Source: Geobacter metallireducens GS-15 (lineage in GTDB: Bacteria; Desulfobacterota; Desulfuromonadia; Geobacterales; Geobacteraceae). Taken from it: a stretch of 32,000 bases of DNA. This document shows positions 634 through 30,946 of the stretch, piece by piece; position 1 is the stretch's first letter; every line of letters starts with the position of its first letter. The translations under genes and the position numbers were made by a program. The notes under the pieces were generated by a model that was not told the origin of the DNA, searched no databases, and was given only the letters and a program-made list of their open reading frames with translations. Location of the stretch: NCBI RefSeq assembly GCF_000012925.1, contig NC_007517.1:2730001-2762000 (forward strand), given 5' to 3'.

Positions 634-1869
634 TCAGACGGCGTCGTCCATGCCGTTGACCCAGTTGCAGGCTGCCAGCTGGACAGGGGCAAGGTTCGCC
701 ATGGAAAGGCTGAAGCGTTCGATGAGGGGCGAAATCGCGCTGAAATCATCCCTCTCGATTTTTTCCACCAGCTGGAGGAGGATGCCCAACTCCCCCTCGC
801 GGGCCAGGAGCGCCTGCCGGACATCCTCGTTCAGATTGAGGGGGGACACCACCTCTTCGATGGGCATTTTGAGCAGCGCATCGGCAAGGGAAAGGATGCC
901 GGTCATGAAGGCCCGGTCGGGATATTCGCGGTCATAGAGCACGGTGGGCTGCTCCGAGATGATGAGCTCCATGAGGCGGGCCCTGGTTGCGGCCATAACG
1001 AGGAGCGGGTTATCGCCCACCGCCTGGGCGGTGTTGGCGAAAAGCGCCATCATGGCCCAGCGGCGCAGCTGGTGGTAGCCGAGCACCATGATCGCATGGC
1101 GCATGCTGGTGATCCTGCTTTTGAGCCCCACGGAGACGGAGTTCACCAGCCGGAGGAGGTTGATGATCAGGTTCGGGTGCTGCTTGAAGGTACTTTCCAG
1201 CTCGTCGATATCCACCTCGGCCACGAGCTGGTTGAAGAGCTTGATGATGGCGAGACGCCCCACGTCGACGCGGGTACGGGTCAGCACCACGGGACGGGCG
1301 AAGTAGTACCCCTGGAAGTAGGTGAAACCGAGGGCCTCGCACTGCTCGTACTGCTCGTAGGTCTCCACCTTCTCGGCCAGAAGCTTCGGCTTCCAGTGCC
1401 TGAACGTCTCTAGTTCGGACTGCAACCGCTCCATGCCGGTACGCATCAGATCAACCTTGATGACATCGACAATCTCGTAGAGGGGTTCGTAGACCGGCGC
1501 GTAGACATGGTCGTCAAGGGCGATCGAAAACCCCTTCTCCTTCAGCTCGCGGCAGCGGTTTATGACCGTTTCGGTTATGGGAACGTGCTCCAGAAGCTCG
1601 ATGACCACTTTTTCCGGGGGAAGGAGTTCGAGGGCCTCGCTCATGAGGACATCGGCATTGACGTTGATGAACCCCTTGTGCTTGCCGAGGATTTCGCGGA
1701 GGCCGAAACTGGAGAGGGCATCGAAGATGACGCTGGCGCTGGCCTGGAGATAATCGGTGACATTGGCGTGAAGGGTATCGGCCGAACGGAAGAGGAGTTC
1801 GAAACCGTAAAGCTTCTGCTCGCGATCAAGAATCGGCTGGCGGCCGAGGAAAAACTTTTCTTCTGCCAT
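634..1869 (-). CDS. EAL domain + HDOD domain signalling protein (c-di-GMP phosphodiesterase-like)
   Basis: 411 aa. The N-terminal half has EAL-family landmarks: QPILD..YGFELLFR, VVIELLE, INVN, KVD, AEKVET, FQGYYFARP. The DDFGTG loop is replaced by DDHVYAP. The C-terminal half looks like HDOD (ITSMRHAIMVLGYHQLRRWAMMALF). ATG start with GGAG upstream. Confidence 0.85.
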   Translation of the reverse strand: MAEEKFFLGRQPILDREQKLYGFELLFRSADTLHANVTDYLQASASVIFDALSSFGLREILGKHKGFINVNADVLMSEALELLPPEKVVIELLEHVPITETVINRCRELKEKGFSIALDDHVYAPVYEPLYEIVDVIKVDLMRTGMERLQSELETFRHWKPKLLAEKVETYEQYEQCEALGFTYFQGYYFARPVVLTRTRVDVGRLAIIKLFNQLVAEVDIDELESTFKQHPNLIINLLRLVNSVSVGLKSRITSMRHAIMVLGYHQLRRWAMMALFANTAQAVGDNPLLVMAATRARLMELIISEQPTVLYDREYPDRAFMTGILSLADALLKMPIEEVVSPLNLNEDVRQALLAREGELGILLQLVEKIERDDFSAISPLIERFSLSMANLAPVQLAACNWVNGMDDAV

Positions 1870-2017: not shown

Positions 2018-3085
2018 CTACCCGCAGAGCCGCAGCACTTCCCGGGCGATGGTATCCAGGGGGATAACCCGGTCGGCCCCTCCCCGCTTGATGGCCTCGT
2101 TGGGCATGCCGAAAACGATGCAGGTGGCTTCGTCCTGGGCGATGGTGACGGCGCCGGCATCCCTCATCTCCTTCATGCCGCTGGCGCCGTCGTCCCCCAT
2201 GCCGGTCATGATGACCCCCACGGCGTTCTTGCCGGCGTAGCGGGCCGCCGAGCGGAAGAGGACGTCGACGGAGGGGCGGTGGCGGGAGACCAGCGGCCCG
2301 TCCTTGATCTCCACGTAGTAGCGGGCGCCGCTCCGCTTGAGGAGCGTGTGCCGGTTGCCGGGGGCGATGAGGGCCCTCCCCCGCATGACCGTGTCGTTGT
2401 CGGCCGCCTCCTTCACCGTGATGCGGCAGATGCCGTCAAGCCGCTGGGCAAAGGCCCGGGTGAATCCCTCGGGCATGTGCTGCACGATGACAATAGGAGG
2501 GGAATCCGCCGGGAGCGCTTCAAGGAAGACCCGCAGCGCCTCGGTGCCGCCGGTGGAAGCCCCCACGACCACCACCTTCTCGGTAGTCTGGATCATGGCC
2601 TTCGAGCCCGGCTTTTCCAGGATCACATCGGCGGAGAGCTTGGGAGCAATCTCCTTGCCGGTACGCGGCGTAATCTTGCGGAGCCTGGCCTGGCTCGCCG
2701 CCTTCACCGCGTCGCAGATCCTGACCCGCGACTCCTCCAGGAACTGCTTGGTGCCGAGCTTCGGTTTCTGGATGATCTCCACCGCCCCGTATTCCAAGGC
2801 CTTGACAGCCGTTTCCGAACCGCTCTCGGTGAGGGTCGAGCACATGACCACCGGGATGGGGTGCTGGCTCATGATTTTCTTGAGGAAGGTGATGCCGTCC
2901 ATGCGCGGCATCTCGACGTCGAGGGTGATGACATCGGGGACCTGCTCCCGCATCCGCTCCGCGGCGATGAAGGGATCGGCCGCCGGCGCCATGACCTCGA
3001 TATGGGGGTCCGAGGCGAGGATGTCGGCCATGGTCTGCCGCACTACAGCCGAATCGTCAACGATGAGCACCTTGATTTTCTTCAT
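2018..3085 (-). CDS. cheB: Chemotaxis response regulator protein-glutamate methylesterase CheB
   Basis: 355 aa. Contains an N-terminal receiver ([13 protein letters not shown]...DVEMPRMDG...KP) and a C-terminal methylesterase domain ([28 protein letters not shown]). Confidence 0.95.
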
Positions 3086-3120
3086 GACGTTCCCTGGTTT
3101 ATGGAGTTTCCACGCCCCGT

Positions 3121-3603
3121 TTATTCTGCTCCGCCTCCCCGGCGGAGGCGCTTCAGAAAGACTTCGCCGGTGTGGGTCACAAAAAAAAGCTTCCGCCCCC
3201 GCGTTCCCCCAACGTCCTTGGCGGCAACCGTCAGCCCATTGGCAGCCAGGACCAGGGTGGCAATCTCCACGTTGCGCCGCCCTACCCCCACCCTGTTTCC
3301 TCCCGCGCCGATTATGTCGGCGCCGCCGAACACCTTCACCTCGAGGCGTTGGCGACTAACACCCTGGGCCGCAAACATTTCGAGCATGAGAAGGATGGAG
3401 GAATCGACATAACGGAAGGCGTCGGAACGGGGCCCCTCGGGGAGCAGCGCATGACAGATGGCGGCGGTGCCGCTGAGGCGATCGAACATGGTGACCGATA
3501 CGCACGAGCCGAGGACCGTGGTCACGACAGCAGGGGTTGCGGCAAAATGCAACTCTCCCGGTTTCAGATACACCTTCGGAAGATCGGGCGCAATGGCTGT
3601 CAT
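3121..3603 (-). CDS. cheD: Chemoreceptor glutamine deamidase CheD
   Basis: 160 aa with CheD family landmarks ([24 protein letters not shown]). Its ATG overlaps the cheR stop in an ATGA arrangement (3600-3603), which suggests translational coupling. Confidence 0.9.
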
Positions 3604-4469
3604 GGCGGTTTCCGATAGATGGTGGAGGCCACCTGGACCAGGGGGACATCGAGCCCCGACAGGGTTTCAGAGTGCCCCATGAAGAGGTATCCACCGGGGA
3701 TCAGATGGCGGCAGAACTTATTGAGAAGCCGCTCCTGGGTCCGCTTGTCGAAGTAGATAATGACATTGCGGCAGAAGATGATGTCCATGGGCTCCCGCAG
3801 GCCAAAATCGTCGTCCATGAAATTGAGCCTGCGGAACCTGATGCGGCCGCGCAACTCGGGGATGACACGCACGAGCCCCTTCTGTCCATCCTTCCCCCGG
3901 AGAAGGTACTTCCGCTTGAGGGGAAGGGAGACCGGCTCGACCCGCTCCTCCTCGTAGATGGCCAGCTTCGCCTTGTCAAGGACGGTGGTGCAGATGTCGG
4001 TGGCGAGGATACTGTAGGAAAACCCCTGGTTCTGTTCGGCGAATTCCGCAAGAACCATGGCGAGGGTGTAGGGCTCCTCGCCGCTGGAGCACCCCGCGCT
4101 CCAGAGGGAGAGCCCCTTGCGGAAACCGGCCCCCCGCGATTCCGCCAGGTCAGGGAGGGCCTTTCCCACCAGATAGTCGAAATGGGCCGGCTCGCGGAAA
4201 AAATCGGTTTTGTTGGTGGTGACCACGTCAATGAGGTGGACGAGCTCCAGCCCTGCCCCCTCGCGGCTGAAGATGAAATCGGCGTAGTCCTGAAACCCCC
4301 TCAGGCCCAGTGCCCTGAGCCGTTTCTGGAGCCGCGCCTCCAGCATCGTCTTCTTGGCCGGCGGCATCTTGATGCCACACTGGTCATAGATGAACTCGGC
4401 GAATCGCGAGAACTCCCGGTCGCTCATGGCCGCCGTGGCAAGGCGGTTGTCAGTGGCAGAATTGAGCAT
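3600..4469 (-). CDS. cheR: Chemotaxis protein methyltransferase CheR
   Basis: 289 aa with CheR landmarks: TTNKTDFFREPAHF, SLWSAGCSSGEEPYTLAM, IFCRNVIIYFD, GGYLFMGHSE. Confidence 0.95.
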   Translation of the reverse strand: MLNSATDNRLATAAMSDREFSRFAEFIYDQCGIKMPPAKKTMLEARLQKRLRALGLRGFQDYADFIFSREGAGLELVHLIDVVTTNKTDFFREPAHFDYLVGKALPDLAESRGAGFRKGLSLWSAGCSSGEEPYTLAMVLAEFAEQNQGFSYSILATDICTTVLDKAKLAIYEEERVEPVSLPLKRKYLLRGKDGQKGLVRVIPELRGRIRFRRLNFMDDDFGLREPMDIIFCRNVIIYFDKRTQERLLNKFCRHLIPGGYLFMGHSETLSGLDVPLVQVASTIYRKPP

Positions 4470-4498
4470 AAATAGGATCTGGTCCCTGGTCCCGGCCT

Positions 4499-4993
4499 CT
4501 ACGCCGCCTCTCCCGCCACGACGCCGGCAGTGGCAATCTCATCGCTGGTGAAGGTACGGTCGATGTCGAGGATCATGATGAACTGCCCATCATGTTTCCC
4601 CATCCCCAGGATGAAGTCGGTGTTGAGCTTGGTCCCGATCCGGGGAGCCGGCTCAATCTGCTCGGGCTCCAGCTCGAAGACCTCCTGCACCGAGTCGGCC
4701 AGGGCACCGATAATAATGGTCTCGCCCTCGTGGTTCACTTCCACGACAATGATGCAGGTATTGACGGTCTTCTCCGTCACGGGCATGCCGAACTTGAGCC
4801 GCATGTCCATGACAGGCACCACGCTCCCCCGCAGATTGATGACCCCGCGCATGAAATCGGGGGTCTGGGGAACCTTCGTAATGGTTGTGAACTCGAGGAT
4901 CTCGCGCACCTTCGCCACATCCACGGCAAAGATCTCCTCCGCCAGCTTGAAGGTCAGATACTGCCGTGTTTCCGTTATTGCCGCAACGCTCAT
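4499..4993 (-). CDS. cheW: Chemotaxis coupling protein CheW
   Basis: The track ORF is 4499..5035. I prefer the internal ATG at 4993 (MSVAAITETRQYLTFKL...) because GAGGAGG lies 7 nt upstream. CheW fold landmarks are present: YLTFKL.EE.FAV....V.EI, INLRGSVVPV.D.R.KFG. Confidence 0.9.
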   Translation of the reverse strand: MSVAAITETRQYLTFKLAEEIFAVDVAKVREILEFTTITKVPQTPDFMRGVINLRGSVVPVMDMRLKFGMPVTEKTVNTCIIVVEVNHEGETIIIGALADSVQEVFELEPEQIEPAPRIGTKLNTDFILGMGKHDGQFIMILDIDRTFTSDEIATAGVVAGEAA

Positions 4994-5068
4994 GGTAACC
5001 TCCTCGTGGGGTTGTACTTTGGGGGCTAGGCGCATGCGGCCCGCCCCGAACCTTCGCTTATAGGATAC

Positions 5069-13281: not shown

Positions 13282-14343
13282 TTACGAATTCTCTCCCAGC
13301 AGGGAAGAGCAGACGCGGTTCTTGCCGGTCACCTTCGCCTGGTAGAGAGCCCGGTCGGCCTCTTCGATCACATCGGCAACCTCAATTCCCAGGCGCAGCG
13401 TCACGGAGGCGATTCCGACACTGACCGTCGGCATTATCTTCTCTTTGTTCACGGGAAGCGACAGCGTCGCCACATTCTGCCGGAATCGTTCCGCAACCAC
13501 CCGGGCGGAATCCTGCGACGTATCGGGGAGCAGCACTCCGAACTCCTCGCCGCCGTAGCGGGAAACGACGTCGGACTTCCGGAAGCTGAGCCTCAGCATC
13601 TTCGCCACGGCGACGAGAACCTGGTCTCCGGCTCCGTGACCGTAGGTATCGTTCACGCGTTTGAAGTCGTCGAGATCGATCAAAAGCAGCGAAAACGGCT
13701 TTGTGGTCCGCTTCCGGGCCTCGACTTCCAGCATCGCCTCGAAGACCCGACGGTTGTAAAGTCCGGTCAGATGATCGCGCATGGAAAGGTTCTTGAGCCG
13801 GTCGCACTCCCGGGCAGCGGCCAGGGAACGGGCAAGGTTTTCGACAACTCCCCCAAAGAACTCGTCGGAATATTGACTTTCGGCCAGGGATTGACGGGAG
13901 AGGGAGAGGGTTCCCGAGCCGTCGGGGAAAGGGATGGTACGGACGTCGGCGGCATCGCTCAGCCCCTTCTGCGCGGCAGCGATAAAGACCGTGGACGTGG
14001 CGCCTTCCTGACGTTTTTTTGACAAATGACGACCGCGTCCCGCCCCACCCCTCATCGTGCCGGTGGAAAAATCATGGCAGCAAACCGAGAGCATTTGCCA
14101 GCCGAGAGTCTCGCCGAGCCATGAAGATGCTACCTCGCATACCTGCCGGGGGTCGAGGATGGAACCGACAACAGCGCCAAAATCCGCCACGAGAAGCAGT
14201 TCGGCAACGCGCCGCTCCAGGGCGGCAGGAGATTCGTCACAACCGGAGTTTGTCGATTTCAGTTCGTGCCGTGCATAGGGGGCGCGTGTCATCCGTGCCG
14301 GTTTTACCGTGCAGTTTCCCGCCATAATGTGCGATTGCAGCAT
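13282..14343 (-). CDS. Diguanylate cyclase (GAF-like N-terminus + GGDEF domain with I-site)
   Basis: The track ORF starts at a TTG at 14349. The ATG at 14343 has GGGAGGA 8 nt upstream. The GGDEF domain shows DHLTGLYNRR, DLDDFKRVNDTYGHGAGD and RYGGEEF. An RKSD (RxxD) motif lies 5 residues before GGEEF. Confidence 0.9.
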   Translation of the reverse strand: MLQSHIMAGNCTVKPARMTRAPYARHELKSTNSGCDESPAALERRVAELLLVADFGAVVGSILDPRQVCEVASSWLGETLGWQMLSVCCHDFSTGTMRGGAGRGRHLSKKRQEGATSTVFIAAAQKGLSDAADVRTIPFPDGSGTLSLSRQSLAESQYSDEFFGGVVENLARSLAAARECDRLKNLSMRDHLTGLYNRRVFEAMLEVEARKRTTKPFSLLLIDLDDFKRVNDTYGHGAGDQVLVAVAKMLRLSFRKSDVVSRYGGEEFGVLLPDTSQDSARVVAERFRQNVATLSLPVNKEKIMPTVSVGIASVTLRLGIEVADVIEEADRALYQAKVTGKNRVCSSLLGENS

Positions 14344-14411
14344 GTTCAATTTCCTCCCTGAAAGAAAACATCATAATAGTTACAGCCAATTACGGAACCA
14401 TTGCCATAAAA

Positions 14412-14427
14412 AAGCATATTTAGTGCC
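14412..14427 (-). promoter_or_regulatory. Sigma-54 (RpoN)-type -24/-12 promoter for the GGDEF gene
   Basis: The minus strand reads TGGCAC-TAAAT-ATGCT, with GG-N10-GC spacing exactly as in the consensus TGGCAC-N5-TTGCW. It lies about 65 nt upstream of the start codon. Confidence 0.6.
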
Positions 14428-14565
14428 AGTCCATTAACGCTATGTAAAATTTTCTTTGCAAAACAAATCATACGTCTTGTATCCGGCATATGGCGGGCTA
14501 AGGGGAAAGGCGCAACCGTTTACTTCTCGATCGGGTACTGCCCCTTCACCGCAGGCTCTCTACAC

Positions 14566-14592
14566 AAAAGGCCCCGTATTTCGGGGCCTTTT
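14566..14592. terminator. Bidirectional-looking hairpin terminator downstream of the hybrid kinase gene
   Basis: The sequence is AAAA-GGCCCCG-tattt-CGGGGCC-TTTT: a 7-bp GC stem flanked by A and T runs, about 180 nt after the kinase stop codon. Confidence 0.65.
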
Positions 14593-14769
14593 ACCATAGA
14601 CGGACAGCGGTGGCCGCCTGCGCGTCAGGGGGTACAACGTATCGTCGGGGAAATGTCCAACGTCAATAATCCGTCTCAGCCGTTAAACGAGAAGGCTAAA
14701 CAGATAGGGGAAACCGGCACGGCCGCCCATACCAGGGAGATCGGGCGACCGTTTGCCAAGAAGGGAATA

Positions 14770-17253
14770 TCAGGACATTTCGCCGACCGCCGCCTCTACC
14801 CGGCGGACTTCGCGGCGAAGCAAGGGAATAGTCCGGGCGACAGCGACGCCGTCGCTCTTTCGAGCCGCCGTTTCCACGTCGGCGGCGTATCTGCTGACAT
14901 GGGGCGCGCCGATTGTTGCAGCCGCTCCCTTCACGGAGTGGGCAGCCGCGGCCAGTTCAGCGTACTTGCCGGTGGCGAGGTATTCCTCCATCCGTTCGCA
15001 CTCCGTCGCCGTTGACTGGGCGAAGATGGAGAGGACCTCAGCAAGGCAGTCCCCGATTCCCGCGTCATGGAACTGTGATTGCTGGAATTCAAGGTCAAAC
15101 GGGGAACCTTCATCGGGAGCATCACGCATCGGGCATCTCTCCTCGGGTGGCAATTCGCCTCTTTCTCCGGCGATGCGAAGGAGCATCCTCTGCAACTCGC
15201 CACGGATAAGGGGCTTGGATAGGTAGTCGGACATCCCTGCGGCAAGAAAACGGTCCCGGTCATCCTTCAGGGCATGGGCAGTCAGGGCGACAATCGGAAT
15301 CGCGCGAGCCTTCTCCCCCGCGTCCCCCCGGCGGATCGCCCGGGTGGCCTCGATCCCGTCCATCTCGGGCATTGAAATATCCATGAGGACCAGGTCGTAC
15401 GTGCCATCCCTGAGGGCGTCAACAGCCTCCCTGCCGTTGGCGACGGCAGCGACCCGCTGCTTGAGCGCCGTGAGCAGACCAATGGCCACCGTCCGGTTCA
15501 GCTCGTTGTCCTCGACCACAAGCACAGAGAGGCTGGGAAGTACGCTGTCGGAAAGCTCCTCGCCGGCGGTTTTGTCCGCTGGAGGACCGGTTGCGGGCCT
15601 CAGGGGGAGGAGAACACGGAAGACCGCCCCTTTCCCCGCCTCACTCTCCACCTCGATGGTTCCCCCCATCAGTTCCACCAGCCCCCGTGTTATGGCGAGC
15701 CCGAGGCCGGTTCCGCCATAGTTGCGGGTTGTGGAAGAATCGGCCTGGCGGAACATCTCGAAGATTCTCTCATGTTTGTCCTTCTCTATCCCGATGCCGG
15801 TGTCACTTACTGTGAAGAGCAGATTTCCGCCGGCAGGGTCCGCATCTGCAGCAAGGGTGACCCGCCCACCCGTCGGGGTAAACTTGATGGCATTCGAAAG
15901 GAGATTGGTCAGTACCTGACGGAGGCGGGCCGGATCGCCACAAATAAACTGCGGCGCCTCATCGCCCACAAGGATCGAGAGGCTGATGTTTTCTCGTTCT
16001 GCCTTTACGGCAAAAAGGCGGCGGAGCGATTCGACAAAGGAGCGGAGTTCCAGCGCTTCGTCCGAAAGCTCCAGGCGCCGGGCTTCGACCCGGGAGAAAT
16101 CGAGAATGTCGTTGATGATGGTCAGGAGCGATTCGGCGGCATTGCTCGAGTCGTCCACCAGCCGGCGCTGCTGCTGAGAGAGATGGGTCTCCTGCAGCAA
16201 CTGGTTGATCCCTATGATGGCGTTCATGGGAGTACGGATCTCATGACTCATGGTGGCGAGAAATTCGCCCTTGACACGGTTCGCCTCCTCGGCCTCTTCT
16301 CTAGCCTGGACAAGTTCGGCGGTCTTCTCTTCCACTTTTTCCTCCAGGTTATTGATGAAGGCGTGGAGTTCCGTCGACATGACGTTGAAAGACGCGGCGA
16401 GTTCATTCATTTCACGGTCGCGGCCGAGAGGGATCTGCTCACCGAGGTAACGGCGGTCGTGGGCGATCCGGCGGGCACTTTCGGTGACAGATGCCAGAGG
16501 GCTTAGGACAACACGGCCGAAGAACCAGTTCTTGATGGCGAAAAACGAGGCAATCACCGCAAGGAGCAACGCCGACAGTCTGAGGGAAAAACTGTTGGCC
16601 TCGGCATAGGCCTCGGACAGGGGAATCCGGATGGAAATTGCCGACACGAGCTCGTTCTCGTGGCGGCTGAAGCTGCGGTTGGGCCCATAGGTGCGGACCA
16701 GGCCGCCTGGTGCCGTCTCCGGGTTACTGTGGCAGAGCAGGCAGGACTTCTCCATTGCTTCGCCGCGTGCCATGGCGACGAAAAACAACTTGCCGTCGAT
16801 CTCGCGTACGCCGTTGAACGTGGTAACCGCCGGATTGTGGCTGGCCCGCTCCAAGAACTCACGCTCGAAGGGATCGGCCTCGTTCCGGGGGCTCCGGGCG
16901 TTGATGGCGCATTCCTTGTAGTAGTACCCTTTCCCGTGGCGTGACTGGAATATTTTGTCGATCTCTCGGACGGCATAGGTGGAGGACATCCAGACCGGAT
17001 CGAAGTAATCCTTGTCCCGCAGGGACGCGGTGAAGTCAAGAAGCCGCGGCTTGAGCTCCTTGTTGATATAGGCATGGATTGCGAGATACCGCACGAGGAT
17101 TCGCTCGGCATCCCGGCCGGCATCGTTGAGGGCCAGCCGCTTCTGGGCGACGTTCACCACCAGGACGATGACAAGGGATGTGACGCCGAGGAGGAGGAGA
17201 TTTATCCGGAGAAGCCGTGCCTTTATTGAGGAAGCCTGTTTCTGGAGAACCAT
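14770..17253 (-). CDS. Hybrid sensor histidine kinase: periplasmic c-type-heme (DUF3365-like) sensor, HAMP, HisKA, HATPase, receiver, HPt
   Basis: 827 aa with these elements:
- TM1 at aa ~15-35
- CLLCH at aa 171-175 in the context [23 protein letters not shown]
- TM2
- H-box ([10 protein letters not shown])
- N/G boxes ([21 protein letters not shown])
- receiver (VLVVEDN...DISMPEMDG...KP)
- HPt ([15 protein letters not shown]). Confidence 0.9.
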
Positions 17254-17416: not shown

Positions 17417-19525
17417 TCAACGGGCCATCTGCTCCAGTTCCACATCGCGCACCAGTTGGGGAATATCGAGGATGAGGGCCACTGAGCCGTCACCCAGAAT
17501 GGTGGCACCCGAGAGACCTTGGACGTCCCTGTACATCTTCCCCAACGACTTGATCACCGTCTGATGCTCGCCGATGACGTGGTCCACCACAAAGCCGACC
17601 CTCGTTCCCCCCACCCGGGTGATGACGATCTGCTCGATCTCCGGCTGCTCACCCCGGATGAGGAACCGCTCCCGCAAGGGGATGTAGGGGACAATCTGGT
17701 CCCGGACCGTGGCCAGGTTGCGGCCGTGGGCGTTGCGCACATCTTCCCGGGTCAGTTCCACGCACTCCTCCACGACGGAGAGGGGGAGCACGAAGCAGTC
17801 GGAGCCGATCTTCACGAGGAGGCTCTCGATGATGGCAAGGGTTAGCGGCAGCTTGATGGTGATGACGGTCCCCGTCCCCCGCTCGCTCCGGATGTCGATG
17901 GTTCCCCGCAGGGCGTCGATGGCCCGCTTCACCACGTCCATGCCGACCCCGCGCCCCGAGACGCTCGTGACGGTCGTGGCGGTGGAGAAGCCGGGGGCGA
18001 AGATGAGGCTGAAGATCTCCTTGTCGGAGAGTTCGGCCGTGGCCGGGATGAGTCCCCGCTCGACCCCCTTGGCCCGGATCGCCTCCCGGTCGAGTCCCTT
18101 GCCGTCGTCGGTGATGGTGATGAGGACGCTGTCCCCCGAGTGTACTGCGGCCAGGTGCACGGTCCCCTGGGGAGGCTTGCCGGCGGCGGCCCGCTCCTCG
18201 GGGCGCTCGATGCCGTGGTCGATGGAGTTGCGGATGAGATGGACCAGGGGATCGTTCAGCTTCTCGATGACCGTCTTGTCCAGCTCGGTCTCGGCGCCGT
18301 CGGTGGTCATCTCGATATCCTTGCCCAGCTCCACCGACAGATCCCGCACCAGTCGCTTGAACTTGCTGAAGGTGGTGCCGATGGGGAGCATCCGGATGTT
18401 GAGGGCCGTGTCGCGCAACTCGTTGGTGAGCCGCTCCACCTCCTCGGCAATGGTAACCAGCAGGGCATCGGCCCGGCCGGCGGCGGTCTGGGAAAGACGG
18501 GCCTGGACGGTGACGAGTTCTCCCACCAGGTTCACCAGCAGGTCGAGCTTTTCCGCCGGTACCCGGATGCTCGACGCGCTCTCCTGGACCTGGCGCTCCT
18601 TGCGGACCTCCTTCACGTGCTGCTGCTCGATGAGGGCCGACTCAACCTTCTCGGGGGAAACGATTCCCTGCTCGACGAGGAGTTCGCCGAAGCGCTTCTG
18701 TTTGGCGAGAATCGCCTCCATGTCCTGCCGGGTCAGATCACCCCGTTCCGCGAGAATAAAGCCGAGCTTCTTGTAATCGGCGTCAACGTCGAGGATACCG
18801 CCGTCGTCGATGACATCGATTTTCAGCTCGCAGTCGTCCTCGATAAAAATGAAGACGTCCCGAATGGCGTCAATCCCCCGGTTCGTAGTCAAAATCACGT
18901 CCCAGAAGACGTGGCAGTGTTCAGGATCAATCTCCTCCAACCGGGGCACTTTTGCCATCTGGGCAACGGTTCGGCAGTGGCCCAACTGGCGGAGTTCCGC
19001 CAGAAGGAGCAGCGGGTTGGTACCGTTGACGGTCACCTCAGGGGAAGGAACAAAGCGGATGCGGTAGGTGACCGCTGTTTCACCCCTCTTCGATTCCTGG
19101 GCGCCTCCTCCCACGGGTGTTTCTTTGGCGGATGCGCCATCCGGCTCCGCCGGCACAAGCCGCCGGAGCCCGGCGATGACCTCCTCTGCCTGGCGCCCTT
19201 CCACCGGTTCTGCCCCGCCGTCCGAGGCGTCCAGCATCCCCTTAATGAGGTCCCGAGCCTTGAGGGTGAGGTTGACCAGGTCCCTCGTGACCGTCATCCG
19301 GCCGTTGCGGACCATGTCGAAGACGGTTTCCACCTCGTGGGTGAAGGTGGCAATGTCGTCGAAGCCGAACATGGCCCCGGACCCCTTGATGGTGTGCATG
19401 GCACGAAAGACCCGGCTGATGAGGTCCATGTCCTCGGGAGTTTCCTCCAGCTCCAGGAGCGATGTCTCCAGCTCCGCCAGGAGCTCGTAGGCCTCTTCCT
19501 TGTATGCCTGCCTGTGGGCGTCCAT
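17417..19525 (-). CDS. cheA: Chemotaxis histidine kinase CheA
   Basis: 702 aa with these elements:
- P1 HPt (MHTIKGSGAMFG)
- P2-like region
- an inserted pair of LGxxLxxxG...Q motifs at aa 253-301
- P3/P4 (HLIRNSIDHGIE, DDGKGLD, GRGVGMDVV)
- P5 CheW-like C-terminus
The ATG overlaps the cheY stop (TAATG at 19523-19527). Confidence 0.95.
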   Translation of the reverse strand: MDAHRQAYKEEAYELLAELETSLLELEETPEDMDLISRVFRAMHTIKGSGAMFGFDDIATFTHEVETVFDMVRNGRMTVTRDLVNLTLKARDLIKGMLDASDGGAEPVEGRQAEEVIAGLRRLVPAEPDGASAKETPVGGGAQESKRGETAVTYRIRFVPSPEVTVNGTNPLLLLAELRQLGHCRTVAQMAKVPRLEEIDPEHCHVFWDVILTTNRGIDAIRDVFIFIEDDCELKIDVIDDGGILDVDADYKKLGFILAERGDLTRQDMEAILAKQKRFGELLVEQGIVSPEKVESALIEQQHVKEVRKERQVQESASSIRVPAEKLDLLVNLVGELVTVQARLSQTAAGRADALLVTIAEEVERLTNELRDTALNIRMLPIGTTFSKFKRLVRDLSVELGKDIEMTTDGAETELDKTVIEKLNDPLVHLIRNSIDHGIERPEERAAAGKPPQGTVHLAAVHSGDSVLITITDDGKGLDREAIRAKGVERGLIPATAELSDKEIFSLIFAPGFSTATTVTSVSGRGVGMDVVKRAIDALRGTIDIRSERGTGTVITIKLPLTLAIIESLLVKIGSDCFVLPLSVVEECVELTREDVRNAHGRNLATVRDQIVPYIPLRERFLIRGEQPEIEQIVITRVGGTRVGFVVDHVIGEHQTVIKSLGKMYRDVQGLSGATILGDGSVALILDIPQLVRDVELEQMAR

Positions 19526-19890
19526 TAGCCGAGCACCTTTTTGACCACCGCCACGAGCTGCTCGGGCTTGAAGGGTTTGACAATCCAGCCGGTGGCCCCT
19601 GCGGCTTTTCCTTCGGCCTTTTTCGCATCCTGGCTTTCAGTGGTGAGCATGATGATCGGGGTGAAGCGGTAGGCGGGAAGCCCCCGGACCCCCTTGATGA
19701 GGCCGATGCCGTCCAGGTTCGGCATGTTCAGGTCGGTGATCACCATGTCGACCTTCGCCCCCCCCAGTTTCCCCAGGGCGTCCTTGCCGTCCACCGCCTC
19801 CACCACGTCGTAGCCGTTCTGCTTGAGGGTGAAGGCTACCATCTGGCGCACGCTGGCGGAATCGTCAACCGTCATGATTGTCTTGGCCAT
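19525..19890 (-). CDS. cheY: Chemotaxis response regulator CheY
   Basis: The track ORF runs to 19911. The ATG at 19890 (MAKTIMTVDDSASVRQ...) has GGAGGA 8 nt upstream. It is a single receiver domain (DD, D in ITDLNMP, T in LTTE, K in VKP). The start overlaps the STAS stop as TAATG. Confidence 0.9.
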   Translation of the reverse strand: MAKTIMTVDDSASVRQMVAFTLKQNGYDVVEAVDGKDALGKLGGAKVDMVITDLNMPNLDGIGLIKGVRGLPAYRFTPIIMLTTESQDAKKAEGKAAGATGWIVKPFKPEQLVAVVKKVLG

Positions 19891-20252
19891 TACTCGTATC
19901 CTCCAATCCATATACAGGATTTTCCCACATCAACGGCGCATCCCACGTGGCGCCGAAAACCGGCGAGGCATGCCGCCTCTTCCAGTATGGGATTCGTCAG
20001 TCCTTCGACAGCAAGCTCCTTCTCCCTGCCATAGGCCGACCGGTGGGCGGAGCAGAGAAGCTGCAAACCGGTGATGTCCACGGCGCTCACCCCTTCCAGG
20101 TTGACAAGCACCCGTCCCGCCCCGTCGAAGGCGTCAAGGAGCGCCGTCGAGAACTCTCCGGCGAAGGGAATGGTCAGCTCGCCATTCACCTTGAGGACAA
20201 GGGTCGCGTTTTCCCCTCCAACTTCTTCCCGTGTAATTGTCAGTCCGTCCAT
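19890..20252 (-). CDS. STAS-domain protein (anti-sigma-factor-antagonist fold)
   Basis: The track ORF runs to 20396. The ATG at 20252 (MDGLTITREEVGGENATLVLKVNGELT...) has AAGGAG 6 nt upstream. The STAS pattern is present: a beta-strand-rich N-terminus, then VNLEGVSAVDITGLQLL, where SpoIIAA-type proteins have DSSG. Confidence 0.8.
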   Translation of the reverse strand: MDGLTITREEVGGENATLVLKVNGELTIPFAGEFSTALLDAFDGAGRVLVNLEGVSAVDITGLQLLCSAHRSAYGREKELAVEGLTNPILEEAACLAGFRRHVGCAVDVGKSCIWIGGYE

Positions 20253-20301
20253 TCTAGTCTCCTTGCACTGTTCCCGACTTTGCCGGTCCCCGGTCCCAGC
20301 C

Positions 20302-22179
20302 TCAAAACAACTCCACATTGTCGCCAAGCCCGTCGTCGGCGGCCCCGCCCGCGGCCGCGGCAAATAGATCCGGCGTCGGCTCGACCCTGGCGCCATTCCC
20401 GGCGATCATGGCATCATGAACCCTCCGTTCGCTGTGCATCGTATACCGGTCGGCCAGCTCCCGCAGCCGCAGCTCTTTGGCATGGGCAGCCGTAGCGGGC
20501 GCAAAGGGGCGGACAGCACCCACGACCCCAGTGATCTCGGCCAGCACCTCATCGATGAGCGCGGTCGAAGTTTCGTGGACGGTCATCACGCCAGTGGCCT
20601 GGTCGATGTCGCGGGAAAGGGCCTGGACGGCCGCGTCGATCCGGCCGAGGAGGTCGATGAGCCGCTCGTTGACGCCGCGGACCGAACCGACGAGGTTGCG
20701 GATTTCGCCGATGAATCCGTCAACCTCTTCGGCAATGAGACGGACGTCGGTGTCGACTTCATGGCTCAGGCCCCCGGTCACTTCAGTGACGTTTCTGAGG
20801 GTATCGGAGACAGCGCCGGTCCGGGTCCGGGCCTCCACCGACAGGTGCTGGATCGCCTCGGCGAGAACGCCCAGGGCTGCCCCGCCATCGCCGGTATTGG
20901 CGGCCTTCACCTGGGAATTGAGGGCGATGAGCTCGATCTCGGAGCCGATCTCCTCGATGGTGGTGACGAAGCCTGCGATGTCCTGCACCGATGCCATTAC
21001 GGTCTCCATGGCCGATGCCAGGTTCCGGTTGGCCGCGGCGTTGTCGGAGAGGACCTCCGTCACCCGCCCCATGCCGTTCTCCATGTCGGCAAAGAATGAA
21101 CTGCCGGCCCGGTCGGCGGTTCCGGCCATGTGGCGGGTTTCGTCCGACAGGCGGGTCTGCCGGCAAGCGATGGCCCGCAGGTTCTCCACGATCCGCGCCA
21201 CGGCCGATGAAAGTTCCTCGCGGGCGTGGCGCAACTGGGCCTCCTGGAGCTCGCAGACATCGGCCACCTCGCAGGCGTTCTTCACCGGATCGCCGGCCTG
21301 GTCCGTAAGATTCGGGATCAGATCGTCAAGGGCCTCCTTGACATGCTCGATCTGCTGCCGGGTAATGTCGTGGAACTGGAGCGACGTGACCACCTCGGCG
21401 ATGCTCCCGGCGGTTTCGGCCGAGGATGAGGTCACGACGCCGACCGCTTCGGAGCAGCGGCCATGGATCTCGGTCAGGGTGACGAGGCTCTCGCGGGTTT
21501 TGTCGAGGATATGGCGGACGTTTTTCCGCTGCTCGACCTCCGACGCGGTTACCCGGGCAAGGGTTCCGCCGATCATGGATGAAAGGGTCTCCTTCTCGCC
21601 GAGGATGGCAACGGACTTTTCCTTGATGGAGACCGAAAGCCGCTCCACGTCGTCGGCCAGGGTATTGAACCCCGCGGCCCCCTCCCCGAGCCGGGCGCTT
21701 TCAATCTTGACGGAGGTGCTTATCATGTGGAGGTTCTTGATTATTTTCCGGAACCCGTCCAGGGGCTCGTCGACATTGCTGATGTGGGAAAGTATCGTCT
21801 TGAGGGTGGTGGCGCTCTGGTCGCTTTCTGCCTCGGCGCGGGAGAGGTAGTCGGCAATCCGGTCGACAATGCCGTGGAGCGCCGCCATGTCGCGGCTGAT
21901 TTCGTCGCCCAGGATCAGGTCCGCCACCTGGCGTGACATCTCCTCGATCTCCCCGGCCCGGCCGTAGAAGTCGTGGAGACGGGCGCCGATGGCGAGAAAC
22001 TCCTCTTCGGTGGAGCCGTTGAGAAGGGAAAGCCGGCCTCCGATGCCCAGGAGCTGCTGGTGCCACGGCTCGAACTGTGCGGAGAGAGCCTGGTTTGCCG
22101 ACAGGGGAGATGAAGCGTCAATCGCTGCTTCGGACTGGTCCGGGTCTGGCCTGAACCTGCGAAAGAATGCTAATGTCAC
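20302..22179 (-). CDS. Soluble, atypical chemoreceptor-like protein with two signalling-tip-like motifs
   Basis: The track ORF starts at a TTG at 22218. The GTG at 22179 has AAGGTGG 6 nt upstream. I see no TM segment. There are two MCP-tip-like segments: ISTSVKIESARLGEGAAGFNTLADDVERLS and IELIALNSQVKAANTGDGGAALGVLAEAIQHLS. These compare with [31 protein letters not shown] in the neighbouring MCPs. The protein ends in DNVELF. Confidence 0.8.
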   Translation of the reverse strand: MTLAFFRRFRPDPDQSEAAIDASSPLSANQALSAQFEPWHQQLLGIGGRLSLLNGSTEEEFLAIGARLHDFYGRAGEIEEMSRQVADLILGDEISRDMAALHGIVDRIADYLSRAEAESDQSATTLKTILSHISNVDEPLDGFRKIIKNLHMISTSVKIESARLGEGAAGFNTLADDVERLSVSIKEKSVAILGEKETLSSMIGGTLARVTASEVEQRKNVRHILDKTRESLVTLTEIHGRCSEAVGVVTSSSAETAGSIAEVVTSLQFHDITRQQIEHVKEALDDLIPNLTDQAGDPVKNACEVADVCELQEAQLRHAREELSSAVARIVENLRAIACRQTRLSDETRHMAGTADRAGSSFFADMENGMGRVTEVLSDNAAANRNLASAMETVMASVQDIAGFVTTIEEIGSEIELIALNSQVKAANTGDGGAALGVLAEAIQHLSVEARTRTGAVSDTLRNVTEVTGGLSHEVDTDVRLIAEEVDGFIGEIRNLVGSVRGVNERLIDLLGRIDAAVQALSRDIDQATGVMTVHETSTALIDEVLAEITGVVGAVRPFAPATAAHAKELRLRELADRYTMHSERRVHDAMIAGNGARVEPTPDLFAAAAGGAADDGLGDNVELF

Positions 22180-22264
22180 GGAAGACCACCTTTGCTCTGG
22201 GAAAAACAGCCGGCGCAACCGGAATCGGCTTTGCTAACTGTACGGAATCGCTATCTGTTCATAC

Positions 22265-22887: not shown

Positions 22888-23361
22888 CTATTTTTTGAAG
22901 TCGGCGTACCGGGAGATGACGAAATCCCTCTCCTTGGCCTCCTTCTGGTGGCATTCGAAGCAGTTTTTCACCGGGTCGATTCCCGAGGGTTTCCCCTCCG
23001 GCGTAAAGCCGGCGAAGAGCCAGCCTCCGGTGGCGGACTGCTTCTTGTCTTTCGTCATGAGGACGACCATGCTCTTCTTCCCCTTGACCGGCTTTCCCCC
23101 CTCGTTCCTGATGGTGTACTGCACCACCACGAAACGGCTCCCCTCCGGGTACGGCCCCCCCTTCTTGTAGGCGGGCATCGTCTTCTTGTCCACATAGATG
23201 TTGTGGATGCCGTAGAAAAGGGAGGTCTTGTCGTTAATCACCTTCTCCGAGCTCTTTCCCCACTTTTCGTATCCCTTGGGGAGCGCCACCTTCTCTGCTG
23301 CAAAAGCGGCCGAAGCAGCCAGAATGGCTGCAACCGCCGTTACGCCTGCCAATCTTCTCAT
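22888..23361 (-). CDS. Cytochrome P460-family-like periplasmic monoheme protein
   Basis: I prefer the ATG at 23361 (MRRLAGVTAVAAILAASAAFAAEKV, a signal-peptide-like N-terminus; GGGAGGAG 7 nt upstream). The track ORF reaches 23520, where an ATG also has AAGGAGG 7 nt upstream. A single CFECH motif sits near the C-terminus, preceded by GGWLFAGF, as I recall for the P460 family. Confidence 0.7.
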   Translation of the reverse strand: MRRLAGVTAVAAILAASAAFAAEKVALPKGYEKWGKSSEKVINDKTSLFYGIHNIYVDKKTMPAYKKGGPYPEGSRFVVVQYTIRNEGGKPVKGKKSMVVLMTKDKKQSATGGWLFAGFTPEGKPSGIDPVKNCFECHQKEAKERDFVISRYADFKK

Positions 23362-23602
23362 CGATTTACTCCTCCCGTGCTCAATCTCATCTGCCATCCC
23401 TTCGTGGCGGCGGAATGTTCGATCATTTTCACCCATCTCCCCGCAGGCGTCAAGAACAACGGAGGCGTGTATTTGACTACAATTGAGTCTTGACGGTTTC
23501 TTGATGTCTTTCAGCGGCATATTGAGACCTCCTTTATGCGGGATGGGCTACTCTAACATCAGGTGAAAAGCTTTCGGGCTCACGTGGAGGAAGGTAATTT
23601 CC

Positions 23603-23855: not shown

Positions 23856-25616
23856 ATGACCCAGTACGAATGGCTGCAAACAACCCTTTTTCTAGTCCTC
23901 CTCTTGGCCGTGGTGAAGCCGATGGGGGCCTTCATGGCTAAGGTCTTCCAGGGGGAGCGCACCATGCTGTCGCCACTCCTCGTCCCGTGCGAGAACCTCC
24001 TCTACCGGATCTGCGGAGTGAACCGTGACGAAGAGATGGACTGGAAGCGGTACGCCGTCGCCGTGCTCCTTTTCAATCTGGCGCTTTTTGTCTCGCTCTT
24101 CGCTATCCTGATGCTGCAGCACCTGCTGCCGCTCAACCCGCAGAAGTTCCCGGCCTACACCTGGCAACTGGCCCTCAACACCGCTATCAGCTTCGTCACC
24201 AACACCAACTGGCAGGCCTACAGCGGTGAATCGGCGGCCAGCTACTTCACCCAGACGGTGGGGCTGGCGGTGCACAACTTCGTCTCCGCCGCCACCGGCA
24301 TTGCCGTGGCGATTGCGGTGATCCGGGGCTTTGCCCGACGCAGGACCTCGATGCTGGGTAACTTCTGGGTCGACATGACCCGCTGCACCCTCTATGTCCT
24401 GCTGCCCATTTCCCTTATTGGTGCACTCATCCTGGTTTCCCAGGGGGTGATCCAAAACTTCAGCGATTACAAAACAGTCCCCCTGGTCCAGCCCATCACC
24501 TACGACAAGCCGAAGGCGGACGGCAAGGGGAATCCAGTCACCGGGCGCGTGACCGTCAAAGATATCACCATTCCCATGGGTCCGGTCGCGTCCCAGGAAG
24601 CGATCAAAGAACTGGGGACCAACGGCGGCGGCTTCTTCAACGCCAACTCGGCCCATCCCTATGAAAACCCCACACCCATTTCCAACATGGTTGAGATCTT
24701 CCTGATCCTCCTCATCCCGTTCGCCCTCACCTCCACCTTCGGCGTCATGGTGGGAAATACCCGCCAGGGGTGGGCGATCCTGGGGGTGATGCTCCTGATG
24801 ATGGCGATCTCCTTTGCCGTGCTGCAAGGCGTGGAAACGAGCGGCAATCCCCTCGTGGCCAAGCTGGGCGTCCACGGTGTCAACATGGAGGGAAAGGAGG
24901 TCCGCTTTGGGCTGGCCGGCGCGAGCCTCTTCACGGTGGCCACCACCGGTACCTCCTGCGGTGCGGTGGCCACCATGCACGACTCCCTCACCCCCCTCGG
25001 CGGCATGATCCCCCTGGGCCTGATACTTCTGGGCGAAATCGCTCCCGGCGGGGTCGGCTCCGGGCTCTACACCATGCTCGCCTTCGTGGTGATCGCAGTC
25101 TTCGTGGCAGGGCTGATGATCGGCAGGACGCCGGAGTTTCTGGGGAAGAAGATCGAGGTGCGCGAGATGTGGATGTCGATCATCACGGTCCTGGCAGCAG
25201 GGGTTGTGGTGCTGATCCTTTCGGGCGTCGCCATGATCACGCCTCAAGCCGTGGCCTCCAAGGCCAACCCCGGCGCCCATGGCCTGTCCGAGGTGCTGTA
25301 CGCCTTTGCCTCCATGGCCAACAACAACGGCAGCGCCTTTGCCGGGCTGAACGCCAACGTCGATTTCTATACCATTCTGGGTTCCCTGGCCATGCTGGTC
25401 GGGCGCTTTGCCCCAGCCGTCGCCGTGCTCGCCATGGCCGGTTCCCTGGCGGAGAAAAAGTACGTCCCACCCAGCCTGGGGACGCTTCCCACCGACAAGG
25501 TTCCCTTTGCCCTCTGGCTCATGCTGGTAATTCTGATCGTGGGCGCACTGACCTTTTTCCCGGCCCTGTCGCTTGGCCCGCTCGTCGAGCATCTGACCAT
25601 GCTGGGAGGTAAATAA
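23856..25616 (+). CDS. kdpA: Potassium-transporting ATPase subunit KdpA
   Basis: The track ORF begins at 23724. The ATG at 23856 ([24 protein letters not shown]...) has GGAGA upstream and gives the typical KdpA N-terminus. The protein is polytopic and carries the [10 protein letters not shown] and TNGGGFF selectivity-filter-like motifs. Confidence 0.95.
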
Positions 25617-25619
25617 TCC

Positions 25620-27689
25620 ATGTCGATACACAAGCCTGACCCGATCTCCATCTTCGACAGCCGGATTATGAAACCCGCGCTGATCGATTCCTTCAAAAAG
25701 CTCGATCCCCGGGAACTGTGGCGCAATCCGGTCATGTTCTGCGTGGAGATCGCCAGCGTCATCACGCTGGTAACCTTCATAATGTCGCTCACCGGAGCCA
25801 ACAGGGAGCCTGCCTGGTTCACCGGTCTGGTATCGGCCTGGCTCTGGCTGACGGTTATTTTCGCCACCTATTCCGAAGCTCTGGCGGAAGGGCGCGGCAA
25901 GGCGCGGGCCGCGTCGCTGCGCAAGACCCGCACCGAAGTGACGGCCAAACGACTCAGCAAACCGGCATTCGGTGACAACTTCACCTTGATCGGCGCCAAC
26001 CAGCTCCGCAAAGATGACTACATCCTGGTTGAGGCGGGAGAGTTGATCGCCGGCGACGGCGACGTGGTGGCCGGGGCGGCCCTGGTGAACGAGTCCGCTG
26101 TGACCGGCGAGTCGGCCCCGGTGGTGCGCGAATCGGGGGGCGATCGGAGCGCGGTCACCGGCGGCACCACGGTCATTGCCAACTCGATCATCGTCAGGAT
26201 CACCGCCAATCCGGGGGAGACCTTCCTGGACCGGATGATCTCCCTGATCGAGGGGGCCAAGCGGCGCAAGACCCCCAACGAGATCGCCCTGGAGGTGCTC
26301 CTGATCGCCCTGACCCTGGTTTTCCTCCTGGTCTGCGCCAACATCAGCCCCCTCTCCATGTACAGCGTCAGGGCCGCCGGCCAGGGGTCCCCGGTGTCGC
26401 TGACCGTCCTGACCGCCCTGTTCGTCTGTCTGGCGCCCACCACCATCGCCGCGCTTCTGCCTGCCATCGGCATTGCCGGCATGGACCGGCTGTTCCAGAA
26501 AAACGTCATCGCATTGTCGGGGCGGGCCATCGAGGCGGCCGGCGACGTGAACGTGCTCCTCCTGGACAAAACCGGCACCATCACCCTCGGTAACCGTGAG
26601 GCGGTGGCTTTTGTCCCGGTCGGCGGCCACAGCGAACAGGAACTGGCCGAAGCAGCCCTGATGGCGTCGCTCACCGACGAGACTCCTGAAGGGCGGAGCA
26701 TTGTGGCGCTGGCGAAGCAGAAGCACGGTCTGAAAAGTAACGCGCTCCCCCCCGATGCGGAAACCATCGCTTTCAGCGCCGAAACCCGCCTGTCCGGTGT
26801 CAACGCGGGCGGCAACCAATACCGCAAGGGAGCTGCCGACTCGACGGTTGCCTTTGTCAGAACCCTGGGTGCAAGGGCCATCCCCGGCGAACTGGCGGAT
26901 GTGGTCGACAGGATCGCCCGGGCCGGGGCAACCCCGCTCGTGGTCAGTTGCGACGCCGAGATCCTCGGAGTGGTAAACTTGAAAGACATCATCAAGAGTG
27001 GTATCCAGGAGAGGTTTCAGCAGTTGCGGAGCATGGGGATCAAGACCGTAATGATCACCGGCGACAACCCCCTCACCGCTGCCGCCATCGCGGCCGAGGC
27101 CCAGGTGGACGATTTTCTGGCCCAGGCCAAGCCGGAGGACAAGCTGCGCCTGATCAAGGAAAACCAGGAGGCCGGCTACATGGTGGCCATGACCGGCGAC
27201 GGCACCAACGACGCCCCGGCCCTGGCCCAGGCGGATGTGGCGGTGGCCATGAACACCGGCACCCAGCCGGCCCGGGAGGCGGCCAACATCATCGACCTGG
27301 ACAGCAATCCTACGAAGCTGCTGGACATCGTCGAGGTGGGGAAGCAGATTCTCATGACCCGTGGGAACCTCACCACCTTCAGCATCTCCAACGATGTGGC
27401 CAAATACTTTGCCATCATCCCGGCCATGCTCCTCTCCATCTATCCCCAGTTGGAAGTGCTGAACATCATGCACCTGGCCACCCCCCTGAGCGCGATCCTC
27501 TCGGCGGTCATCTTCAATGCGATCATCATCCCGCTCCTGGTCCCCCTGGCCCTCAGGGGAACCAAGTTCCGCCCCATGCCGGCCGAAAAACTCCTGATCC
27601 ACAACCTCCTCATCTACGGGGCCGGAGGGATCATCGCGCCGTTCGTGGGGATCAAGGGGATCGACCTGGTGATCGGGATGTTTGCATAA
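25620..27689 (+). CDS. kdpB: Potassium-transporting P-type ATPase subunit KdpB
   Basis: 689 aa with the DKTGTIT phosphorylation motif, TGDN and [27 protein letters not shown] lies 10 nt upstream. Confidence 0.97.
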
Positions 27690-27703
27690 GGAAAGGGGAA
27701 ACC

Positions 27704-28273
27704 ATGAACGACATAAAACCGGCTATTATGATGGTACTCGTCTTTACCATCATCTGCGGCGGTATCTATCCGGCGGTGGTTACCGGGATTGCCCAGGCCG
27801 TATTTCCAAAAGAGGCCACAGGGAGCTTCATCACCGACCGGAGTGGCCGCGAGATCGGATCGGCACTCATCGGCCAGCCCTTCTCCGATTCGAAGTATTT
27901 CTGGCCCCGCCCGTCGGCAACCACTGACTTCGGCTACAACCCGGCCGCTTCCGGCGGCTCCAACTCCGGTCCGACCAATCCTGACTACCTGAAGACAGTG
28001 GCCAACCGGGTCAAGGCACTCAAAGATACGGGCGTCTCCACCGGAATCCCGACCGACTTGGTTCAGGCCTCGGCCAGCGGCCTCGATCCCCATATCTCGC
28101 CGGAAGCGGCAAGCGTGCAGATTCCCCGGGTCGCCAAGGCGCGGGGCATGATGGAGGACAAGGTGAGGAGGCTCGTATCCGGCCACACCGAAGATCGTCA
28201 ATTCGGAATTATTGGAAGTCCGCGGGTGAATGTGCTGGCACTGAATCTGGCATTGGATAGGTTGGCCCCATGA
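27704..28273 (+). CDS. kdpC: Potassium-transporting ATPase subunit KdpC
   Basis: The in-frame track ORF 26948..28273 has a long Arg/Pro/Gly-rich extension overlapping kdpB. The ATG at 27704 (MNDIKPAIMMVLVFTIICGGIYPAVVTGIAQ...) follows AAGGAAAGGGG and gives a KdpC-like single-TM protein (SASGLDPHISP motif). Confidence 0.9.
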   Translation: MNDIKPAIMMVLVFTIICGGIYPAVVTGIAQAVFPKEATGSFITDRSGREIGSALIGQPFSDSKYFWPRPSATTDFGYNPAASGGSNSGPTNPDYLKTVANRVKALKDTGVSTGIPTDLVQASASGLDPHISPEAASVQIPRVAKARGMMEDKVRRLVSGHTEDRQFGIIGSPRVNVLALNLALDRLAP

Positions 28274-30936: not shown

Positions 30937-30946
30937 GGGAGAAGAA

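Follow-up and report, generated by a model that had tools for sequence, protein, structure and literature searches.

Does the chemosensory kinase CheA encoded in a 32,000-nt stretch of the Geobacter metallireducens GS-15 genome (NC_007517.1, positions 2,730,001 to 2,762,000; hereafter the window) carry a module that binds cyclic di-GMP (c-di-GMP)? An initial annotation of this DNA had described two back-to-back 24-residue motifs of the c-di-GMP-binding MshEN type, inserted before the CheA dimerization domain, and had raised the hypothesis that the messenger binds this kinase directly. The minus strand at positions 18623-18769 of the window translates as KLGFILAERGDLTRQDMEAILAKQ-K-RFGELLVEQGIVSPEKVESALIEQ, corresponding to CheA residues 253-301, and this translation bears out the two tandem motifs (residues 253-276 and 278-301) and the spacer of a single residue, K277, between them. 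As detailed below, we are highly confident that the insert is related to MshEN_N, and we lean cautiously toward c-di-GMP as its ligand. Domain borders were derived from Pfam and from AlphaFold2 (AF2) models of residues 150-390 (241 residues, mean predicted local distance difference test score (pLDDT) of 90.4) and of the insert only (residues 248-306, pLDDT 88.8). The gene and its domains are as follows.

17417..19525, minus strand: cheA, open reading frame (ORF) of 702 residues with the order P1-P2-MshEN_N-P3-P4-P5 (Pfam Hpt, H-kinase_dim, HATPase_c and CheW)
19226..19510, minus strand: P1 (Hpt), residues 6-100 (Pfam PF01627, E 1.3e-15)
18806..19072, minus strand: P2 (CheY-binding), residues ~152-240 (AF2 alpha/beta domain, pLDDT 95-98; Foldseek)
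18698..18769, minus strand: MshEN motif copy 1, residues 253-276, KLGFILAERGDLTRQDMEAILAKQ (translation, alignment, profile comparison)
18695..18697, minus strand: one-residue spacer, K277 (K in 66/81 and R in 8/81 aligned sequences)
18623..18694, minus strand: MshEN motif copy 2, residues 278-301, RFGELLVEQGIVSPEKVESALIEQ (translation, alignment, profile comparison)
18572..18622, minus strand: helical linker, residues 302-318, helix 4 of the module extended towards P3 (AF2)
18395..18574, minus strand: P3 dimerization domain, residues 318-377 (Pfam PF02895, H-kinase_dim, E 1.2e-12)
17840..18253, minus strand: P4 kinase domain (HATPase_c), residues 425-562 (Pfam)
17441..17824, minus strand: P5 (CheW-like), residues 568-695 (Pfam)

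Because the Pfam and AF2 borders flank residues 253-301, the insert directly precedes P3. Its proposed position between P2 and P3 was confirmed by these borders, by the AF2 model and by a Foldseek search in which the P2 fold of the model matched T. maritima CheA P2 (1u0s_A) with a probability of 1.00. The model of residues 150-390 consisted of the P2 alpha/beta domain, four helices (254-261, 266-273, 279-285 and 291-318) and the helical hairpin of P3 (324-351 and 354-378). Its fourth module helix was a single helix from residue 291 to residue 318, with pLDDT decreasing to 76-81 near the P3 junction. Four helices were also predicted in the insert-only model (residues 249-260, 266-275, 279-285 and 291-305). 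The module helices were predicted with pLDDT of ~89-96 and followed the MshEN_N order; helices 2 and 3 were shortened and joined by a junction of 3 residues. [quoted passage not shown]

The MshEN motif was defined by Wang et al. 2016 (Nat Commun 7:12481, PMC5013675), who also associated MshEN with CheA. We built a hidden Markov model (HMM) of MshEN_N from 13 published domains, taken from the supplement of that paper and from PDB alignments, and compared it with the ORF translations of the window; its sole match covered CheA residues 251-301 end to end (E 3e-8). Alignment of a CheA-insert profile with the MshEN_N profile by hhalign gave a probability of 99.2% and an E-value of 1.5e-19 over 51 columns, with one 4-residue gap located at the spacer. 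When residues 233-322 were searched against PDB sequences with phmmer, T. thermophilus PilF, which has three MshEN domains, was matched with an E-value of 3.6e-6 and V. cholerae MshE (5htl) with an E-value of 0.009. The alignment of PilF's third MshEN domain extended over both CheA motifs and had a gap of 6 residues at the spacer. A further phmmer search of the 59-residue insert against 1.84 billion representative proteins yielded 667 matches at E <= 1e-3, the top ones being multi-repeat MshEN_N-type arrays. The relatedness to the c-di-GMP-binding MshEN domain was therefore upheld by each of these comparisons (phmmer, HMM, hhalign and the library-wide search), and the CheA insert is, on this sequence evidence, almost certainly a homolog of MshEN_N. 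A match to Pfam PF05157 (T2SSE_N), which the initial annotation had set as a check, was not obtained even at E <= 10 with either CheA or residues 233-322. The supplementary alignment of Wang et al. 2016 (PMC5013675) shows PF05157 beginning inside motif 2 and covering mainly MshEN_C, which the CheA module lacks; the missing match is therefore uninformative, and we consider this an unfair test.

Pfam DUF4388 (PF14332) matched residues 243-303 below threshold (18.7 bits versus a cutoff of 25). Positions ~23-90 of this DUF4388/PATAN profile match MshEN_N-type hairpins, both in the window CheA and in multi-repeat arrays (E down to 3e-16), and the central part of the PF14332 model may itself be an MshEN_N-like insert. 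CheA shares only this helical part with DUF4388, the PATAN N-terminal domain, and has nothing of its remainder.

We then compared both copies with the strict form of the motif, RLGxx(L/V/I)(L/V/I)xxG(L/V/I)(L/V/I)xxxxLxxxLxxQ, and with the relaxed form given by Wang et al. 2016 themselves. Copy 1 deviated from the strict motif at four positions (K1, A7, D11 and M17) and copy 2 at two (F2 and V17). The deviations listed previously (K1, A7 and D11 in copy 1, F2 in copy 2) were all present, but M17 and V17 had been overlooked, and F2 is not the only deviation of copy 2. With the relaxed motif, copy 2 was a full fit and copy 1 misfitted at position 11 (D) only. Among the 80 family sequences described below that lack an indel, 47 had a full relaxed fit in motif 2 and 59 misfitted in motif 1 only at position 11. 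Segments with no more than two strict deviations were expected at 2e-4 per shuffled CheA, and none occurred among 650,000 residues of background ORF translations.

To place the module in its family, we scanned orthologous loci using one genome per species, which gave 80 loci; alignment counts out of 81 include the window CheA. These loci came from Geobacter/Geomonas (identity up to 73%), Desulfuromonadales, Syntrophobacteraceae, Desulfobulbaceae, Syntrophorhabdaceae and Smithella, as well as from Nitrospirota (including magnetotactic ones), Spirochaetaceae, SAR324 and Denitrovibrio. The module was found in all 80 of them, and the 49-residue unit, including the 1-residue spacer, was free of indels in 80/81 sequences. 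In V. cholerae MshE, RLG of one motif and LxxxLxxQ of the other together hold each guanine; the backbone of the position-3 G contacts guanine, and the G11L and G40I substitutions abolish binding. In the CheA family, G at position 3 of both motifs (G255 and G280) was invariant in the 81 sequences, as were I257, E300 and Q301, and L298 was kept in all but one. Positions 2, 17 and 21 of both motifs were always hydrophobic, position 17 of motif 2 was always V or I, and position 1 of motif 1 was K or R in 78 sequences. The expected conservation of ligand-contact positions among orthologs was thus observed, if more weakly at position 1 of motif 2 and position 24 of motif 1. As judged from this alignment, strong purifying selection acts on the module at those positions whose counterparts in V. 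cholerae MshE contact c-di-GMP. A sister CheA clade (37-50% identity; proteins P0024-P0045, P0072 and P0080-P0082) had the same P2 (FIFVEDxCEL) and P3, with only a short low-complexity linker between them. This marks the module as a discrete insertion specific to its clade.

In three proteins a third motif copy was located upstream of the usual two, again at a separation of one residue: the CheA orthologs of Nitrospirae metagenome-assembled genome (MAG) HyVt-268 (L038:10001-10792) and bacterium BMS3Abin06 (L045:10001-10792), and protein P0192. The 25-residue period of these third copies implies that the 25-residue hairpin acts as a tandem repeat unit. Other MshEN_N-type arrays that we recovered had periods of 28-31 residues, and a period of 25 was almost confined to this CheA family. 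Several large proteins (~780-1180 residues; P0087-P0091, P0094, P0095 and P0097) combined Hpt, MshEN_N-type arrays, bacterial TSP3 repeats and dockerin. Their arrays contained up to 12-13 motifs with a period of 29-31, so that cytoplasmic signaling modules and extracellular modules were mixed in the same proteins.

What might such an insert do in CheA? The segment encodes a compact MshEN_N-type module of two 24-residue helix-turn-helix hairpins, repeated every 25 residues where the canonical period is 29, and placed between P2 and P3 in a kinase of the D. vulgaris CheA1 (DVU_1594) family. We propose that each module binds one c-di-GMP. Helix 4 of the module is predicted to run directly into the helix leading to P3, and ligand-dependent ordering would therefore alter the tether between P1-P2 and P3-P4 or the geometry of the P3 dimer. 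Either change could modulate autophosphorylation or the transfer of phosphate to CheY, whose gene is co-transcribed with cheA. Binding of c-di-GMP by the compact CheA module is the reading that we favor, by a modest degree of confidence.

Several observations weigh against c-di-GMP binding, and most of them speak for the alternative that survives best, namely a degenerate MshEN_N without nucleotide binding, as in XpsE/GspE or P. aeruginosa PilB, which would serve as a rigid spacer or a docking element (e.g., for STAS or CheY). We regard this alternative as somewhat improbable but serious. One point is the spacer: among the c-di-GMP-binding MshEN_N domains of Wang et al. 2016 (PMC5013675), spacers range from 3 (Bd2402) to 9 residues (A. 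veronii CheA), and a spacer of one residue lies outside this range. Another is position 11 of motif 1, canonically part of the hydrophobic core, which is D in 64/81 and E in 7/81 sequences, a family-specific feature; I19R, the equivalent change, is one of several listed for the non-binding XpsE. In addition, position 1 of motif 2 is R or K in 53/81 sequences and L or P in 22/81, and position 24 of motif 1 is Q in 51/81. Because these two positions vary, the half-site at the shortened junction is less constrained; the half-site formed by the N-terminus of motif 1 and the C-terminus of motif 2 appears nearly invariant and the other relaxed.

The predicted structure adds to these points. The insert-only model had no significant Foldseek match in PDB, in a search run without a canonical MshEN_N model as a control. 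The c-di-GMP-bound PilF GSPIIB structure (9glg_B) ranked 19th, with an E-value of 7, a template modeling (TM) score of 0.40 and a root-mean-square deviation of 10.9 Å. Foldseek results for the 241-residue model were uninformative on the module, since matches were dominated by the P2 fold. Of the MshEN four-helix arrangement that was to be checked by structure prediction, the four confident helices were recovered, but the predicted arrangement did not superimpose on solved, ligand-bound MshEN structures.

Gene context and genetics also fail to favor binding. The initial annotation had pointed out that the cluster is bracketed by a GGDEF cyclase with an I-site and an EAL-HDOD protein; both are indeed present in the window, but as an argument for c-di-GMP the bracketing is not kept across the 80 loci. 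A GGDEF domain was encoded within 10 kb in only 7 of the orthologous loci and EAL-HDOD in only 3 (L004, L005 and L007), and no neighborhood enrichment of GGDEF, EAL or HDOD was found across the 80. Since the c-di-GMP enzymes are not conserved near the orthologs, they represent a lineage-specific embellishment and give weak support for function. The truly conserved partners were the STAS gene (70/80 loci) and CheY (upstream of cheA in 64/80), which fits a docking role. In D. vulgaris Hildenborough, in which DVU1594 is CheA1, the mutant formed normal motility halos in soft agar.

On the other hand, the invariant G255, G280, E300 and Q301, together with the conserved hydrophobic contacts, coincide with the ligand-contact set of MshE, whereas several contact positions are gone from non-binding relatives, XpsE among them. 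Moreover, the A. veronii CheA module, whose motif 1 is more degenerate, still binds c-di-GMP. These facts argue against a purely structural element and for the c-di-GMP reading.

A second possibility, which we consider rather unlikely, is that the form with a 25-residue period is a functionally distinct MshEN_N, whose site is asymmetric or completed across the CheA dimer and through which c-di-GMP gates kinase geometry and activity. The shortened junction between helices 2 and 3 would then make the two half-sites unequal.

It is also conceivable, though very improbable, that another cyclic dinucleotide is bound, such as 3',3'-cyclic GMP-AMP (3',3'-cGAMP). The Geobacteraceae lineage uses cGAMP signaling, the two half-sites are unequally conserved, and V. 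cholerae MshEN_N binds cGAMP weakly (dissociation constant (KD) 3.3e-4 M). However, the CheA family is spread far beyond Geobacteraceae, guanine-contact positions are kept in both motifs, and the adjacent cyclase has the canonical c-di-GMP synthase residues GHGAGD and GGEEF; an Rfam scan found neither a c-di-GMP nor a cGAMP riboswitch in the window. Finally, one could suppose that an amphipathic helical linker resembles a loose motif by chance, citing the missing PF05157 match and the sub-threshold DUF4388 match; this is excluded by the HMM match unique in the window, the hhalign result and the shuffling test, and the unit keeps strictly the same register in 80 loci spread over several phyla.

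The c-di-GMP reading concerns a kinase embedded in a chemosensory cluster. All genes of the cluster are on the minus strand, in the order REC, methyl-accepting chemotaxis protein (MCP; signaling domain only), STAS, CheY, CheA, hybrid kinase and GGDEF, continuing after GGDEF with three MCPs, CheW, CheR, CheD, CheB and EAL-HDOD. Its main members besides cheA are listed below.

20302..22218, minus strand: MCP, signaling domain only (Pfam MCPsignal)
19890..20396, minus strand: STAS-domain gene (Pfam STAS_2)
19525..19911, minus strand: cheY (Pfam Response_reg), stop codon overlapping the cheA start (TAATG)
14770..17253, minus strand: hybrid histidine kinase (Tll0287-like, HAMP, HisKA, HATPase, REC and Hpt; Pfam)
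13282..14349, minus strand: GGDEF diguanylate cyclase with GGEEF, RxxD I-site and GHGAGD (Pfam and sequence)
2018..5035, minus strand: cheW, cheR, cheD and cheB (Pfam)
634..1869, minus strand: EAL-HDOD protein, after cheB (Pfam)

The window shares the MCP-STAS-CheY-CheA order, with CheW/CheR/(CheD)/CheB downstream, with the CheA1/DVU_1594-type cluster. The N-terminal part of the MCP was conserved upstream of cheA in 49/80 loci, and CheW, CheR and CheB were found downstream in 47-54 of 80. The true start of the STAS gene is probably an internal Met (MDGLTI...). The hybrid kinase and the GGDEF cyclase (13282-17253, minus strand) sit between cheA and the MCP genes. Neither the sensor part of the hybrid kinase nor the 185-residue N-terminal region of the GGDEF protein was matched at any of the 80 loci, and these two genes are lineage-specific additions.

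An EAL-HDOD gene directly after cheB was seen only in the window, two Geomonas species and one Desulfuromonadales MAG (L004, L005 and L007); in these three loci it lies ~4.7-5.0 kb downstream of the cheA start. Two other Geobacteraceae loci (L041 and L056) have a GGDEF gene after cheB in place of EAL-HDOD. Three loci encoded small proteins in which an N-terminal J-domain (HPD motif) precedes two or three pairs of MshEN_N-like hairpins (L006:16718-17464, plus strand; L032:16923-17786, plus strand; L028:11723-12544, minus strand; MshEN_N HMM E-values from 3.5e-4 to 1.2e-9). In L006 and L032 this gene belongs to the same cluster and comes a short distance downstream of cheB. Elsewhere in the window, a gene for a cytochrome P460 family protein (22888-23520, minus strand) lies just upstream of the chemosensory genes, and a 1236-residue ORF (23892-27602, minus strand) had no Pfam match and runs antisense to KdpB, KdpC, KdpD and KdpE on the plus strand (25620-31645). 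This is most likely a spurious ORF in DNA of 60% GC.

If c-di-GMP binds the module and alters output, the messenger of the motile-sessile transition would act on the central kinase of the chemosensory pathway. Known links between c-di-GMP and chemotaxis involve receptors (PilZ-MCPs), CheR (MapZ), CheY-like proteins and the motor. The module-containing CheA family is widespread in anaerobes, including Geobacteraceae, sulfate reducers, syntrophs and Nitrospirota. The module offers a biochemical handle on an orphan pathway, of which D. vulgaris CheA1 is the only studied member.

Earlier work, mostly in a supplement, has already described the architecture and the short-spacer subfamily and has shown in principle that a CheA module can bind c-di-GMP. 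Wang et al. 2016 (PMC5013675) listed the architecture HPT-P2-MshEN_N-P3-P4-P5 and reported, by isothermal titration calorimetry, a KD of 2.6 uM for c-di-GMP with residues 261-390 of A. veronii CheA EKB11881 (Supplementary Table 6). They also aligned residues 245-319 of DVU_1594 as MshEN_N (…YKRLGEILLERGDVATEDLRRVLEEQR----PI.ELLAEAGIVTPDQVASALAEQ…), placing a gap of 4 residues at the spacer (Supplementary Fig. 3c panel C, PMC5013675). In the literature searched, we found no later functional work on CheA-MshEN or on c-di-GMP control of CheA through MshEN. As the idea and the architecture are in print, the value of the present analysis lies in confirmation, a family-wide description and a sharper question about the 1-residue spacer.

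Among solved structures, the GSPII domains of T. thermophilus PilF (6F8L, 8PDK and 9GLG) are the best sequence matches to the CheA module (E 3.6e-6), although the 6-residue spacer gap is needed to align them and the AF2 model superposes poorly on 9glg_B. V. cholerae MshE (5HTL) likewise has two tandem 24-residue motifs and shares G3, the hydrophobic positions 2, 17 and 21, and Q24. It differs in having a 5-residue spacer and a 53-residue domain, located N-terminally on a secretion/pilus ATPase and followed by MshEN_C, whereas the CheA module has 49 residues, is internal and has no MshEN_C. A. veronii CheA resembles the window CheA in a module that directly precedes P3 and in a motif 2 with V at position 17 and a final Q; this gammaproteobacterial protein differs in its spacer (~9 residues versus 1) and in a motif 1 without an initial R or K (MLG). 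The closest system is D. vulgaris CheA1 (DVU_1594), a CheA of the same family that carries this module at the same place (residues 245-319). Both proteins show the signatures ERGD (motif 1) and SALAEQ (motif 2), and in both the spacer is four residues shorter than the canonical one; the window CheA is distinguished from DVU_1594 by F at position 2 of motif 2 and A at position 7 of motif 1.

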